A stretch of 9,821 nt of DNA, from IMG/VR virus record IMGVR_UViG_2703718828_000005, one strand, 5' to 3'. The notes under the pieces are model-generated. The model ran no database searches. It was not told the origin of the DNA and was given only the letters and a program-made list of their open reading frames with translations. Both the position numbers and the translations under genes were made by a program. Below are positions 1-6,368 of this stretch, piece after piece (the stretch's first letter is position 1; each line of letters opens with the position of its first letter). This DNA comes from a virus (lineage: Duplodnaviria > Heunggongvirae > Uroviricota > Caudoviricetes).

Positions 1-1053
1 TTACGGGGTAATGCCAACCGCTGCCGCCACTTTGTCGCCACTTGGCAGCGTTGCCAGAGGATTGAAACGGAGCGCCGTTTCCAGATGATCTGGTGCCAGA
101 TGTGCGTAACGCATAGTCATTTTTATATCGTGGTGTCCGAGAATTTTTTGTAAGGCCAGAATGTTTCCACCCGACATCATGAAGTGCGCCGCAAACGTAT
201 GGCGCAGAACGTGTGTGAGTTGACCGCGAGGGAGCACGATAGACGTTTTTTCCATCACGGATAAAAATTGAAAATAGCAGTCTGTGAAGAAATTGAACCC
301 ATCAAGCGCCATGATCTCTTCGTAAAGCTCTTTACTGATAGGGATACTTCTGTTTTTCTTCCCCTTCGTTCTTACAAAGGTAATTCGGTATTTGGTCACC
401 TGTGAACGAGTAAGATTTACGGCTTCTCGCCAGCGTGCGCCTGTGCTTAAGCATATCTTAACTACCAGTGCTAGAATTGGGTCCTGACGTTTGCAATCAG
501 CCAGTAATTCAACAATCTGCTCATGGGTAAGCCATGCCATCTCTTTTTCTGCGATGGTGAATTTTCGCATGTTCTCCAGTGGGTTCGGATACGACCATTC
601 GCCCAGACGGGATAGTTCGCTAAAAACACTACTTAGATAGCTTTGCTCCAGGTTAATGGTGACCGGGCTTGCTCCTTTCTTCCATTTCTCGCTGAAGTAG
701 ATCTCGCCTGTCAGGCGTTTATCTCGATAGTGGGCAAACATTTTAGAGGTGAGATCGGTTGCAAGAGGATTGCCCAGAGCGTCAACCATCAGCAGCAATT
801 TGTCATAGACATGCTGCCCAGCAGTCAGAGATTTACCATGTAGTTTGAACCATAGCTCAACCACGTCTTTCAGGGTTCGACGATCCACTGATTCGCCCAG
901 CCATGGCTTTGATTCGGTTTCTTCCATAGTGTGACGCTCAAAAGCCAGAGCTTCGCCTTTGGTGGCGAATTGTTTACGCACACGACGCCCACTTCGTCCG
1001 GCGGGGTAACATTCGCAAAGCCATTTCCCTGTGGTGAGTTTTCGTACTGCCAT
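1..1053 (-). CDS. int: Phage integrase, tyrosine recombinase family (P2/186-like)
   Basis: 350-aa product. C-terminal catalytic region reads LRHTFAAHF...GHHDIKMTMRYAHL (R, H-x-x-R, Y signature). Start chosen at ATG 1051-1053 (MAVRKLTTGKW...), preceded by GGAGGG 8 nt upstream. The ORF-track start at 1209 would run through the promoter and RBS. Confidence 0.9.
   Translation of the reverse strand: MAVRKLTTGKWLCECYPAGRSGRRVRKQFATKGEALAFERHTMEETESKPWLGESVDRRTLKDVVELWFKLHGKSLTAGQHVYDKLLLMVDALGNPLATDLTSKMFAHYRDKRLTGEIYFSEKWKKGASPVTINLEQSYLSSVFSELSRLGEWSYPNPLENMRKFTIAEKEMAWLTHEQIVELLADCKRQDPILALVVKICLSTGARWREAVNLTRSQVTKYRITFVRTKGKKNRSIPISKELYEEIMALDGFNFFTDCYFQFLSVMEKTSIVLPRGQLTHVLRHTFAAHFMMSGGNILALQKILGHHDIKMTMRYAHLAPDHLETALRFNPLATLPSGDKVAAAVGITP
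19..40. repeat. attL: Putative attL core (cGCTGCCGCCACTTTGTCGCCA)
   Basis: Matches 6967-6988 at 21 of 22 positions (single C/T difference). Lies at the 3' end of int, where attL is expected for a P2-like prophage. Confidence 0.7.
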
Positions 1054-1077
1054 AAAAAATGCCCTCCAGTAGAGAGC

Positions 1078-1106
1078 ATTTTTACTGTATGTATAACCAG
1101 TGTCAA
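1078..1106 (-). promoter_or_regulatory. Candidate sigma-70 promoter for int (-35 TTGACA at 1106-1101, -10 TAAAAA or AAAAAT around 1084-1078)
   Basis: Minus strand reads TTGACA-ctggttatacatacag-TAAAAAT, then GGAGGG and the int ATG about 25 nt downstream. Perfect -35, 4/6 -10, 16-17 nt spacer. Confidence 0.5.
1083..1102. promoter_or_regulatory. Candidate LexA (SOS) box TACTGTATGTATAACCAGTG
   Basis: 16 of 20 matches to the consensus TACTGTATATATATACAGTA. CTGT-N8-CCAG half-sites as in the uvrB operator. Occupies the spacer of the int promoter and overlaps its -35. Confidence 0.5.
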
Positions 1107-1241
1107 TGTATGAAATCCTACGACCATACATCTCACTGAAGCCATAATGAAGTTGGCTATTCTTTTTGCTATGTGAGCATGTAACTTTTGCGGTTAACCT
1201 GCGGCTCATTTTTATTTTAGACGCAGATATAAAAGCAAAAG

Positions 1242-1433
1242 TTATCGTGAGTTTTTAGTACAGATTTTTTTGGATTTACTAATAGTTCCATCATTGCAAA
1301 CGAATTTGCCATCTGAGGTACAGTGAGAAACACCTCCCTTTTTCCCTGAGCAGGGATAATTTCTAGCATAGGTAGTTAGTGGGTTTAATAACAAAGAACA
1401 TGACAAAACCACAAAAAATACCTTACCAAGCAT
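1242..1433 (-). CDS. Small secreted cysteine-containing basic peptide (hypothetical; candidate moron)
   Basis: 63 aa. N-terminal signal peptide [23 protein letters not shown] with predicted cleavage after TYA. Mature ~40 aa carries 4 Cys and is Lys-rich. Strong RBS GGGAGG 5 nt upstream of the ATG. Region is markedly AT-rich. Sits 15 bp downstream of cI on the same strand. Confidence 0.6.
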
Positions 1434-1448
1434 AGTTTCCTCCCGGTA

Positions 1449-2018
1449 CTATTTAACATACTTGACTGTTAAACTTATAATTTTACCAATTATTTCAATG
1501 TCTTCTATCTTACATTCGAAGGCTCTGTTTCCACCCTCGACGAAGATTCTTCCACCGGGTAAACGAGTAATGTCACGGATCGTTACTTCGCCATCAATAC
1601 TTATTACCCATTTACCATCACGTATATCATCAAATTCTTTATCACAAATAAATTCAGAATTGTTATCTGTGATGACAAAAGGTTTTTTAAACGTAGAGGG
1701 TAAAAATCCCTTATCAAAAATATAAAAACCGTCTTCACGCAAGGCACCATCAGATAATACATATTTAGCAACTTCCATAGTATTTGTATTACCTGAAGTT
1801 TGCTTTGAACCATGTCCGGTTGTGAGCCAATTAAGCGAGGTGCCCGTTTCAAGGGCGCACTGGATTACCCATTCTGCTGGGAATGAGTCACGCATGTAGC
1901 GTGTGGCGAGTGTACTTTTAGAGATTCCTAAATGATCGCACAACGCCTGTCGAGTTTTGAATCCATAAGCTTCTACCATGCGCTCTATAGCGCCTCGTCC
2001 GCCTTTCTCCAAATTCAT
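1449..2018 (-). CDS. cI: Phage 186-type CI immunity repressor
   Basis: 189 aa from ATG 2016-2018 (GGAG 5 nt upstream; the ORF-track GTG at 2024 overlaps the SD). N-terminal HTH region (GISKSTLATRYMRDSFPAEWVIQCALETGTSLNWLTTG). Length is close to 186 CI. No S24 peptidase signature seen in the C-terminal domain. Divergent from apl and cII. Confidence 0.8.
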   Translation of the reverse strand: MNLEKGGRGAIERMVEAYGFKTRQALCDHLGISKSTLATRYMRDSFPAEWVIQCALETGTSLNWLTTGHGSKQTSGNTNTMEVAKYVLSDGALREDGFYIFDKGFLPSTFKKPFVITDNNSEFICDKEFDDIRDGKWVISIDGEVTIRDITRLPGGRIFVEGGNRAFECKIEDIEIIGKIISLTVKYVK

Positions 2019-2042
2019 GGTCACTCCAAGTGAACTTTTATC

Positions 2043-2071
2043 TTGACGATTTCATTGTGCGATCGTATGTT
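2043..2071 (+). promoter_or_regulatory. Candidate early lytic promoter (pR-like): -35 TTGACG 2043-2048, 17-nt spacer, -10 TATGTT 2066-2071
   Basis: Read directly from the cI-apl intergenic region 2019-2143. Flanked by a GTGAAC (2030-2035) / GTTCAC (2078-2083) inverted pair that could be operator half-sites. Confidence 0.4.
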
Positions 2072-2143
2072 TATGGTGTTCACAAAATACAAACGATCCG
2101 TATTCGTCCTGATTAATCATCATTAAACGAGGAATGTTGCATC

Positions 2144-2365
2144 ATGAGACCTAACATTTCAATCACTCTTACCACGCCTCATGTGACTATTGAGCGCTAT
2201 AGCGAGCTGACAGGGCTGTCCATCGATACCATCAATGACATGTTGGCTGACGGACGCCTTATCCGTCACCGTTTGCGCAAAGATAAAAAACGCGAAAAAG
2301 TGATGATCAACATAGCAGCCATGACCGTTGATGCGCTTTCAGAATGCAATCTAAACCTTAATTAG
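2144..2365 (+). CDS. apl: Apl/Cox-family excisionase and transcriptional regulator
   Basis: 73 aa, basic. First gene of the rightward operon, divergent from cI, as for P2 cox and 186 apl. RBS GAGGAA 9 nt upstream. Confidence 0.75.
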
Positions 2366-2397
2366 TTCGATTCTGAAATACATCAGAGGCATTGACC

Positions 2398-2907
2398 ATG
2401 TTTGATTACCAAGTTTCCAAACATCCACATTTTGATGAAGCCTGTCGTGCATTTGCACTGCGCCACAATCTGGTGCAACTGGCAGAACGTGCAGGCATGA
2501 ATGTGCAGATTCTGCGGAACAAGCTGAACCCAGCTCAGCCTCATCTATTAACCGCACCAGAAATCTGGCTGCTTACCGATCTGACTGAAGATTCAACGCT
2601 GGTAGATGGTTTTCTGGCACAGATTCATTGTCTGCCATGTGTACCGATTAATGAGGTGGCAAAAGAGAAACTGCCACATTACGTCATGAGTGCAACCGCA
2701 GAGATCGGGCGTGTTGCTGCAGGTGCGGTATCTGGCGATGTAAAAACCAGTGCAGGTCGTCGTGATGCTATCAGCAGCATTAACTCTGTAACACGACTGA
2801 TGGCGTTGGCTGCTGTTTCATTGCAGGCCCGTTTACAGGCTAACCCTGCGATGGCGAGTGCAGTTGATACCGTGACCGGACTCGGTGCTTCATTCGGTTT
2901 GCTGTGA
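2398..2907 (+). CDS. cII: Phage 186-type CII transcriptional activator (lysogeny establishment)
   Basis: 169 aa from ATG 2398 (AGAGG 8 nt upstream), the same length as 186 CII. Immediately follows apl as in phage 186. Confidence 0.8.
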
Positions 2908-5052: not shown

Positions 5053-6368
5053 GTCATGACGATATGAACAATTGCAGCGGCTTTAACGAGGCCGCCGCAG
5101 CATTTTCATGGAACGGCTCGAAAAAGGCCATTAACCCTTATCTGGACCCGGCGGAAGTTGCGCCGGAGTCTGCACTTTCAAACCTGATCACTCTGTACGC
5201 TGCCGATAACGAGCAGGAACAACTGCGCCGCGAGGCACTGAGTGAGCAGGTCTGGGAGCGTTATTTCTTTAATGAATCCCGTGATCCTGTCCAGCGCGAA
5301 ATGGAGCAGGATAAGCTCATTAGCCGGGCAAAGCTGGCGCATGAGCAGCAGCGTTTTAATCCGGACATGGTCATTCTGGCGGACGTAAACGCCCAGCCTT
5401 CCCATATCAGCAAGCCGCTGATGCAACGTATTGAATACTTCAGCAGCCTGGGCAGGCCAAAGGCTTATTCCCGCTATTTGCGTGAGACGATTAAGCCATG
5501 TCTGGAGCGACTGGATTGTGTACGTGACAGTCAGCTATCTGTTTCTTTCCGTTTTATGGCAAGCCATCAAGGGCTGGAGGGTCTGCTGATCCTGCCTGAA
5601 ATGAGCCAGGATCAGGTGAAACGCCTGTCCACCCTGGTAGCAGCGCATATGAGCATGTGTCTTGAGGACGCTTGTGGTGATTTGTATGCCACCGATGACG
5701 TTAAGCCAGAAGAAATCCGCAAGACATGGGAAAAGGTGGCAGCGGAAACCCTGCGTCTGGATGTAATCCCGCCTGCGTTTGAGAAACTTCGTCGGAAAAG
5801 AAACCGCCGCAAACCAGTGCCCTATGAACTCATCCCGGGTTCGCTGGCGCGTATGTTGTGTGCCGACTGGTGGTATCGGAAATTATGGAAGATGCGTTGC
5901 GAATGGCGGGAAGAGCAGTTGCGTGCTGTCTGCCTGGTCAGCAAAAAAGCATCCCCCTATGTCAGCTATGAAGCCGTGATGCATAAACGTGAGCAGCGCC
6001 GTAAGTCGCTGGAGTTTTTTCGTTCTCATGAACTGGTGAACGAAGACGGCGACACGCTGGATATGGAAGATGTGGTAAACGCCAGCAGCAGCAACCCGGC
6101 GCATCGCCGCAATGAGATGATGGCCTGTGTTAAAGGTCTGGAGCTTATCGCGGAAATGCGCAGTGACTGTGCCGTTTTCTACACTATCACCTGTCCGTCG
6201 CGTTTCCATTCCACGCTCAATAACGGCAGACCAAACCCGACCTGGACAAACGCGACGGTAAGACAAAGTAGCGATTATCTGGTCGGCATGTTTGCTGCAT
6301 TTCGTAAGGCTATGCATAAAGCCGAGTTGCGCTGGTATGGCGTGCGGGTACCTGGTGGGGACGGATGA
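5049..6368 (+). pseudogene. A: Replication initiation endonuclease (P2 gpA family), truncated at about codon 435
   Basis: N-terminal region includes ITCPSRFH and ends ...ELRWYGVRV, then runs into an unrelated PGGDG-stop tail. The HUH histidines and catalytic tyrosines that normally follow are absent. Start ATG 5049 overlaps the dam stop. Confidence 0.8.

Follow-up and report, generated by a model that had tools for sequence, protein, structure and literature searches.

The integrase gene int of a defective prophage of the 186/P2 family is probably controlled by the host repressor LexA, through an operator at positions 1083-1102 that is predicted to lie in the spacer of a dedicated promoter, here termed Pint. 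The prophage is found in a stretch of viral DNA of 9,821 nucleotides (IMG/VR record IMGVR_UViG_2703718828_000005; Caudoviricetes), and the whole of this stretch is called the window. An earlier note on this DNA had placed a LexA-type site over the -35 and -10 elements directly upstream of int. Sequence and score support that placement, and the promoter, although predicted, is conserved. The LexA box appears to be one part of a portable int cassette that consists of a CII-like inverted repeat, the -35 element, the box, the -10 element and a leader hairpin with the ribosome-binding site, followed by int. A broader proposal is offered tentatively, with the odds rather against it: that this is an undescribed three-input int cassette of ∼80 bp spread across the Enterobacterales, which would combine the SOS signal through LexA, a lysogeny signal through CII (possibly displacing or overriding LexA) and insulation by the hairpin.

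The predicted LexA box and its score

The features of the int promoter region are these:

1 to 1053, minus strand: int, a P2/186-family tyrosine integrase of 350 amino acids, full-length open reading frame, with Pfam domains Int_N and Phage_integrase
1062 to 1067, minus strand: ribosome-binding site GGAGGG, followed by the int ATG at 1053-1051
1070 to 1072, minus strand: predicted Pint transcription start, ∼7 nt past the -10 region
1078 to 1084, minus strand: -10 region TAAAAAT, right after the CAG of the box, read as TAAAAA or AAAAAT, with spacers of 16 and 17 nt, respectively
1083 to 1102, no strand assigned: predicted LexA operator (SOS box), TACTGTATGTATAACCAGTG on the plus strand and CACTGGTTATACATACAGTA on the int-sense strand
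1085 to 1100, minus strand: spacer CTGGTTATACATACAG, 16 nt
1101 to 1106, minus strand: -35 hexamer TTGACA, from the sequence and a promoter scan, conserved as TTGAC(A/C) or TTGA(A/T)T in a 30-locus alignment

The minus-strand reading given in the earlier note, and its count of matches to the LexA consensus, are correct base for base: TACTGTATGTATAACCAGTG agrees with the consensus TACTGTATATATATACAGTA at 16 of 20 positions, the mismatches being at positions 9, 14, 15 and 20. The motif CTGT-N8-CCAG by itself is weak evidence, with one match in the window against 0.27 expected. A consensus search that tolerates three mismatches finds nothing, as the site has four, and scoring by heterology index (HI), a check that the earlier note had itself proposed, was used instead. 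The HI matrix was rebuilt from 140 Escherichia coli K-12 sites of the form CTG-N10-CAG with published values (PMC12527982, Table S1). The model is symmetric and additive, scores any CTG-N10-CAG site and, as a reconstruction, reproduces every published value within 6e-5.

The window box has an HI of 5.67, which would rank eighth best against all CTG-N10-CAG sites of K-12. The seven entries that score better include what we take to be the boxes of umuDC, dinD, recA, sulA and recN. The window box falls between recN (5.16) and uvrB (6.11), and the two lexA boxes (6.40 and 8.32) and the uvrA/ssb box (6.98) all score worse. With the base composition of the window, sites that score as well are expected by chance at 7e-5 per 9.8 kb and 0.03 per 4.6 Mb; the second-best CTG-N10-CAG site in the window has an HI of 17.8. 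In the published HI distribution, low-HI sites peak at 7.3 and the background at 22.3; Mean Shift clustering places its boundary between 13.60 and 13.95 in the table (PMC12527982). Validated E. coli SOS boxes span HI values of about 2.8-12.9, and the window box is within this range of functional sites and far below the boundary. The assignment of 1083-1102 as a predicted operator of high LexA affinity is thus supported by its score.

The box overlaps both the -35 and the -10 region and is situated 29 nt upstream of the int ATG. In the promoter scan Pint scores 10/12 with the 17-nt spacer, and most relatives have a T(A/T)AAAT-like hexamer after the box. The int start at 1053, and not the in-frame ATG at 1209, is the one annotated in RefSeq and conserved in homologues.

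Conservation of the box and the int cassette

Homologues of int were examined with their flanks in 77 loci at one genome per species, in 80 IMG/VR loci with an int of the window type and in 80 IMG/VR loci with an int of the Pantoea type, the last among the matches listed. A box was recorded where a site with an HI below 13.6 is present 25-36 nt before the int ATG, and only loci with a usable int start were counted:

Species-level genomes: usable int start 71, box 39
IMG/VR, window-type int: usable int start 80, box 80
IMG/VR, Pantoea-type int, among the matches listed: usable int start 78, box 74

Whether orthologous prophages keep the box at the same position had been raised in the earlier note; it is present at a fixed distance in 193 of the 229 loci. 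There are 56 distinct box sequences, in which CTG and CAG are invariant and the interior is A/T-rich and follows LexA preferences; the strongest has an HI of 1.36. Boxed relatives extend down to about 53-57% Int identity, and the diverged carriers are found in Pectobacterium, Rahnella, Pantoea, Mixta, Brenneria, Winslowiella, Acerihabitans, Serratia and Yersinia. In an upstream alignment of 30 loci with a mean column identity of 59%, the invariant columns are both arms of the box and an ACATTGA block at the -35. No box was found upstream of int where this gene abuts or overlaps the preceding gene, as in 186, PSP3, YenM_201.16 and loci of the Fels-2/SopEPhi type (Int ∼54% identical).

The box is retained where CI is only 33-57% identical and also where no 186-type cI or cII is present within 3 kb on either side of int. 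As it is kept under unrelated immunity regions and in different gene orders, the box points to a host factor, LexA, and not to a phage repressor. Phage switch regions are rich in inverted repeats, and the palindrome could be conceived of as an operator of CI, Apl or Int that resembles a LexA box, with LexA uninvolved. This is very improbable: the type of box does not change with the immunity region or gene order, and all 56 variants obey LexA position preferences. Furthermore, the only other such site in two intact relatives is upstream of a tum-like operon, an established LexA target in 186, and the arm-site consensus of 186 Int, YAYCGCCAYTY, is different.

The cassette can be delimited by comparison with its neighbours. 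Nucleotide similarity to Klebsiella phages KP12 and 4LV2017 and to the E. coli prophage vB_EcoM-813R9 spans int and ends at 1111 or 1131. The next 60 nt upstream of the repeat occur in 31 unrelated versions among IMG/VR integrase genes that are at least 99% identical. A unit of ∼80 bp travels with int. The window cassette is identical to the second commonest allele, which is found in 11 of 80 loci on IMG/VR prophage contigs, beside integrase genes at least 99% identical.

These data bear on the possibility that the box matches by chance or is a decayed site in a dead remnant, and regulates nothing in this genome. The element is indeed defective, with gene A fused to gene D and both tum and the structural genes lost, and induction of Int without Tum and Apl has no obvious use. 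Chance, however, is excluded by score and conservation; the cassette is base for base equal to a common allele and int is full-length, so this explanation is unlikely, and only the downstream consequence is likely vestigial.

Several points weigh against LexA control of int. Promoter-like hits in the window are no commoner than in shuffled sequences (3 found against 4.2 expected), and the Pint call therefore rests on conservation and not on the scan. The loci are homologous, and their counts do not represent independent events; the argument rests on the divergence of the flanking columns. In addition, an infecting phage needs Int while LexA is intact, so that a LexA-independent route is required, either CII override or read-through.

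The slot between cI and the cassette has variable content. In the window (1132-1448) it carries an open reading frame for a secreted Cys-rich protein of 63 amino acids, in 813R9 (L159, 27790-29466) a 558-amino-acid 'chromosome segregation ATPase', in 4LV2017 (L162, 1851-2900) a protein of 349 amino acids and in Brenneria (L073, 229-2906) two open reading frames of 338 and 506 amino acids. In ESSI2_ev040 it is empty. The slot may be a hotspot for accessory or defence genes. Elsewhere in these elements, cargo of the defence type is present: 4LV2017 carries a retron St85-family effector and polymerase downstream of the tum-like region (L162, 10905-12888), and an 'abortive infection family protein' is encoded just downstream of int in ESSI2_ev040 (L444, 3743-4561).

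The loci of Pantoea, Rahnella, Pectobacterium, Mixta and Winslowiella are built differently: gpD and ogr come first, then a separate terminator and then the cassette, all on the same strand. This second layout (L025, L026, L030, L033, L036, L039, L044 and L164-L243) reads gpU, gpD, ogr, terminator, Pint cassette and int on one strand at the end of the prophage, which places int on the opposite side of att relative to P2 and 186. When the Pantoea locus was compared with sequenced phages by blastn and tblastn, the phage collection yielded nothing beyond ogr matches and integrases at most 58% identical, and none of its records had this layout. PSP3 and YenM_201.16 were considered as sequenced examples of this layout and rejected, as both are of the operon type.

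Two further observations concern these loci. The 37-kb record IMGVR_UViG_2885069628_000001 (L201, L206) has two ogr-int junctions, one near each end, whose integrases are 77-78% identical to the Pantoea type. At the internal copy the inverted repeat is retained and the LexA box is missing. The two junctions may represent a tandem remnant plus a prophage. In Rahnella (L027, L028 and L032, ∼1000-1255) a second, weak box, TGCTGTTTATCAAACCAGGG, with an HI of 12.4-12.8, is found ∼1.8-2 kb upstream of int, inside the tail-gene region, and is conserved between species.

The CII-like repeat and the leader hairpin

Two features that the earlier note did not mention alter the picture of how the promoter works. 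They are listed here with the related features of the cII gene:

1055 to 1083, minus strand: leader hairpin of 13 bp, with the 5′ arm at 1083-1071, the loop at 1070-1068 and the 3′ arm at 1067-1055
1106 to 1131, no strand assigned: inverted repeat ATGTATG-N12-CATACAT, candidate 186-type CII operator, overlapping the -35 by one base
2398 to 2424, no strand assigned: pE-type CII operator ATGTTTG-N13-CAAACAT in the first codons of cII, with half-sites identical to those of 186
2398 to 2907, plus strand: cII, intact gene for a 186-type CII activator, Pfam Phage_CP76, 69% identical to 186 CII

The pattern ATGTWT-N(8-24)-AWACAT is expected 0.08 times in the window and, besides 1106-1131, is matched only at 2398-2424. 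The 186 record annotates ATGTTTG-N13-CAAACAT at 23435-23462 as the CII site that activates pE, with pE drawn to 23400. The half-sites of 186 are at -38 and -58 of pE (PMC6593788); those of the Pint repeat are at -38 and -57, counted from the predicted start at ∼1071. Compared with 186, the window repeat displays one symmetric change per half-site and a distance of 19 instead of 20 bp from centre to centre (N12 against N13). A repeat of the form ATGT(A/T)T(G/A)-N12/13-CA(A/T)ACAT is found at the same position in nearly all box-bearing loci, and that of ESSI2_ev040 is a perfect ATGTTTG-N13-CAAACAT. The element also encodes a cognate CII, in which a segment of 17 residues, putatively the DNA-binding segment, is nearly identical to that of 186 CII.

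By analogy with lambda, whose CII activates pI, the inverted repeat could allow CII to activate Pint after infection, although we rate the chance of this at a little below even. Pint would resemble 186 pE in its CII-like inverted repeat at a like distance from the predicted start, and would do for int what CII-activated pI does in lambda. It differs from both in its consensus -35 and the added putative LexA operator. A perfect TTGACA does not describe the weak basal promoter of the pE type that depends on an activator; moreover, each half-site departs from that of pE at one position, and 12 nt instead of 13 separate the two. Lambda CII is unrelated to 186 CII and binds direct TTGC repeats. We know of no site other than pE at which 186 CII acts.

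If the repeat is a CII operator, Pint might be mainly an establishment promoter, a counterpart of lambda pI, with the LexA box as a secondary brake on leakiness that has little role in induction. This deserves serious weight, at something short of an even chance. Such a role would agree with the likeness of the repeat to the 186 CII operator in half-sites, symmetry, spacing (12-13 against 13) and position (-38/-57 against -38/-58), with its conservation as the upstream boundary of the cassette and its perfect form in ESSI2_ev040, with the intact cII and its nearly unchanged putative DNA-binding segment, and with the need to make Int after infection while LexA is intact. The perfect -35, however, should not need an activator, and the LexA box is no less strictly conserved than the repeat and often stronger elsewhere than in the window (HI down to 1.36). 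In agreement with a role in induction, the box is paired with a LexA-boxed tum operon in prophage 813R9 and phage 4LV2017. An establishment role is compatible with LexA control of int and does not exclude it.

A link between cII and the prophages of ogr-int layout was also sought. Among the matches listed (80 for Int, 80 for CII and 120 for the pE operator) no IMG/VR contig is shared, which is uninformative either way. Other assignments of the region were rejected. The dyad of Ogr/B-type late promoters is TGT-N12-ACA; the repeat reads TGT-N18/19-ACA, like the CII site. The arm sites of 186 Int, as given in the 186 record, show no resemblance.

The leader hairpin is stable and carries the ribosome-binding site in its 3′ arm, properties of a terminator or of a structure that sequesters this site. 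GGAGGG occupies 1067-1062 of the 3′ arm, and the U-run at 1059-1054 is mostly inside the base of the stem. With an A-tract and a run of six U on its flanks, the hairpin is similar in form to an intrinsic terminator. The stretch of leader RNA between the -10 and the ATG has a folding energy of -17.5 kcal/mol (z -5.4); in RNA that begins at the predicted Pint start the hairpin is lost (-2.1 kcal/mol, z 0).

Different stems are found at the same place in other lineages: GCCCUCA/UGAGGGC, CACAUUCUC/GAGAAUGUG, CUCUCCUAA/UUAGGAGAG and CCCCCUU/AAGGGGG. Significance was assessed by shuffling each sequence separately, since an alignment of stems across lineages would itself have to be fitted to the structure, and any count of covariation would then be biased. 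Values of z are below -2 in 14 of 19 lineage hairpins and -2.0 in a fifteenth. A compensatory change is present in close relatives, from GCCCUC/GAGGGC to GUCCUC/GAGGAC (C:G to T:A). In 18 of 20 sampled lineages the read-through RNA folds at -5.8 to -19 kcal/mol and the Pint RNA at 0 to -4.2; in the 17 with a read-through leader below -7 kcal/mol, the predicted start is at the end of the 5′ arm or inside it. The Pectobacterium and Mixta leaders fold near zero either way, and a separate upstream terminator tends to go with a weaker leader hairpin or none.

The hairpin may insulate int from read-through, with Pint transcripts escaping it; the chances of this appear evenly balanced. The analogy is with the fold-back inhibition of IS10, in which the ribosome-binding site is sequestered only in transcripts from outside and the element's own promoter starts inside the hairpin; here the predicted start is at the end of the 5′ arm. 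This mechanism, reportedly described by Davis, Simons and Kleckner in 1985, is said to protect the transposase from external read-through. IS10 differs in gene and element, and the E. coli-type hairpin has in addition a terminator-like U-run. Against insulation, the drop in stability comes partly from the shorter RNA and depends wholly on the predicted start, and some lineages (Pectobacterium, Mixta) do without a leader hairpin.

The same structure could be read in a simpler way, as the terminator of the cI-orf63 operon, formed by hairpin and U-run; the -35 and -10 would then be fortuitous, and LexA at most a roadblock to read-through into int. The intrinsic-terminator form with its A-tract and U-tract flanks agrees with this, as do the lack of enrichment of promoter-like hits and the finding of no other minus-strand terminator between orf63 and int. 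It is nevertheless a poor prospect. The -35 block and a -10-like hexamer are conserved at fixed spacing around the box, and the same spacing is kept in Pantoea, Winslowiella and Mixta behind a separate upstream terminator, where a second terminator would be needless and the promoter is the sole means of expressing int. Without a promoter behind such a terminator, int would not be expressed.

The proposed SOS circuit in intact relatives and in the remnant

The textbook induction of 186 has a single SOS input: LexA controls tum, Tum inactivates CI, and Int is made from the lysogenic operon. That the SOS input of 186-type phages is the LexA-controlled Tum and not int, as the earlier note stated, agrees with the 186 record, where p95-tum is the input and int, whose start overlaps the cI stop, lacks a separate promoter. 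There int is the distal gene of the cI operon, fed by transcripts from pL and pE (PMC7708051). The p95-tum box of 186 is TACTGTATGTTTATACAGTA, with an HI of 1.49. It belongs to the same phage family as Pint, answers to the host repressor that is predicted for Pint, overlaps a promoter and couples SOS to induction; it differs in that it controls an anti-repressor and not an integrase, and in covering the -10 and start, whereas the Pint box is in the -35/-10 spacer.

The intact relatives vB_EcoM-813R9 and Klebsiella phage 4LV2017 have exactly two boxes each with an HI below 13. One is at Pint (6.08 and 7.25, respectively), and the other, with 5.89 in either genome, is at the tum-like operon that follows gene A. 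In 186 and YenM_201.16 the box of the tum region is the only one. The two strong boxes at tum and int in both intact relatives argue that the int box is, as far as such comparisons can indicate, an ancestral second SOS input of the 186-like lineage and not a peculiarity of the remnant. The earlier note had presented the int box as an oddity of an element that has lost tum; it is better described as part of a widely conserved cassette that is paired with a boxed tum-like operon in 813R9 and 4LV2017.

An additional arrangement is found in Serratia marcescens (L019, ∼36-215), where a Tum-like match (43% over 35 amino acids) adjoins a very strong box, TACTGTATATTCGTACAGTA, with an HI of 3.65, ∼400 nt upstream of cI; the same prophage has a boxed Pint. 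This may represent an anti-repressor module beside the immunity region.

A working model can be put forward. In the lineage described here, int would be uncoupled from the cI operon, with the cassette in place of the 186 arrangement. The leader hairpin would stop or translationally silence transcripts from the cI/cargo operon, and Pint transcripts, which are predicted to start at the end of the 5′ arm, would escape it. The consensus -35 would make Pint active unless it is held down, and a LexA dimer on the -35/-10 interval would keep int silent in an undamaged lysogen. Upon DNA damage, RecA-stimulated cleavage of LexA would open both Pint and the p95-type tum promoter. Tum would then inactivate CI, pR would fire, and Apl and CII would be made, with Int already rising when the excisionase appears. 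On infection of an undamaged cell, the CII-like operator would provide a route to Int, similar to lambda pI. By this analogy CII would have to override a LexA dimer bound 3 bp away, which appears to be the weakest link of the model.

Consistent with the earlier note, tblastn with 186 Tum gave no match in the window, and CI looks non-cleavable: it is of the 186 type (Pfam Phage_CI_repr and Phage_CI_C), with no Peptidase_S24 match above the Pfam cutoff. As the cassette of the remnant is a common allele and int is intact, LexA binding and SOS-dependent transcription of int should persist. Excision of the P2/186 type needs Apl/Cox besides Int, and Apl/Cox comes from pR, which is repressed by CI without Tum. 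Since tum was lost in the A-D deletion, SOS should raise Int without Apl, and the control is probably vestigial for excision. Of the unusual SOS route to recombination at att that had been suggested, the predicted SOS box at the int promoter stands, and the coupling is probably incomplete, as tum is absent and Apl stays repressed. The remnant would thus keep the surviving half of a two-armed SOS circuit, and could have an effect only if Tum or Apl were provided in trans or if Int acted by itself.

The element itself is common. Window positions 1-2400 are matched in 1135 of 5426 complete E. coli genomes, of which 594 contain at least 80% of this segment. In strain L9 a window-like locus is located between rcdA (ybjK) and ybjL, by RefSeq annotation. 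The annotated order in L9 is integrase, 63-amino-acid hypothetical protein, CI repressor, small Apl/Cox-like gene, CII, Fil, DUF5347, DUF2732, TraR/DksA-like protein, Dam, a truncated replication endonuclease fused to a gpD-like tail C-terminus, and Ogr. The near-identical RefSeq locus and Pfam together identify the gene set of a 186/P2-family prophage (int, cI, apl/cox, cII, fil, dam, A, D and ogr) in P2 order. The segment from mid-A to the end of D is deleted, which fuses the two genes, and the structural genes are lost. The window Int is 56% identical to 186 Int and 99.7% identical to that of prophage vB_EcoM-813R9.

The end points of the A-D deletion differ between the window (6260-6349) and strain L9 (L001, 18260-18707). 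The window tracks the intact gene A of 813R9 to ∼6349, and ∼450 bp of a gpD fragment kept in L9 is absent from it. The differing end points imply independent or stepwise decay of one prophage at the rcdA-ybjL site. The 63-amino-acid open reading frame between cI and int (1242-1433, minus strand) encodes a signal peptide followed by a small Cys-rich and Lys-rich protein. It looks like a cargo (moron) gene; Pfam gave no match, and some RefSeq records label it 'YdcA family'. At 1188-1204 the plus strand has a terminator-like candidate, a palindrome centred on GGTTAACC (TTGCGGTTAACCTGCGG) with a T-run after it, which would stop antisense transcription from the int side towards cI. An Rfam search of 900-2500 returned only a match to Phe_leader that, at 22 bits (E 0.79), falls short of the gathering score of 55 and is taken as chance.

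Among the closest functional parallels are the integron integrases (PintI of class 1 and of Vibrio). There, too, a LexA box overlaps the promoter of a tyrosine recombinase, SOS raises the recombinase, and the box is conserved across elements; the recombinase is of another subfamily, and serves cassette shuffling and not prophage integration and excision. LexA control of integron integrases was reportedly established by Guerin and colleagues in 2009. To our knowledge neither a CII-like operator nor a leader hairpin has been described for their promoters. The same control is the subject of Cambray et al. (2011; PMC3108266). The intS gene of KplE1, from a different phage family, is likewise a prophage integrase gene that has its own tightly controlled promoter and is not on the repressor operon. 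It is said to be controlled by IntS and TorI, which bind near attL. A paper on the regulation of this gene (PMC2951348) contains the term 'integrase promoter' 11 times and the word 'LexA' not once.

No description of a LexA-controlled int promoter of the P2/186 type was found in the literature searched, which covers few subscription journals and is thus weak evidence. LexA and SOS do not come up in a study that compares P2-like regulatory regions (PMC3448106). The tool of PMC12527982 assigns prophages to classes according to low-HI boxes, of whatever kind, in promoter regions, and would flag such elements without describing the int-box arrangement; the words 'integrase' and 'P2-like' are absent from the main text of that paper. 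Strains with lexA(Ind-) and with a tum deletion exist for a P2-like phage of E. coli HS (PMC12055606).

If LexA control of int is true, a large sister lineage of P2/186-like prophages has been rewired such that the integrase gene is itself an SOS gene, and induction of the 186 type has two LexA-gated arms, Tum and Int. The hosts of this lineage are E. coli, Klebsiella, Serratia, Yersinia, Pantoea, Rahnella, Pectobacterium and others. A site-specific recombinase would join the SOS regulon, and a tyrosine recombinase inducible by SOS would be present in ∼1/5 of complete E. coli genomes and in remnants could act in trans on related att sites. The cassette would represent a compact promoter in which control by a host repressor and by a phage activator is joined to protection from read-through, and would explain how int is regulated despite the variable cargo between cI and int. 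This matters for predicting which prophages and prophage remnants respond to DNA-damaging antibiotics.

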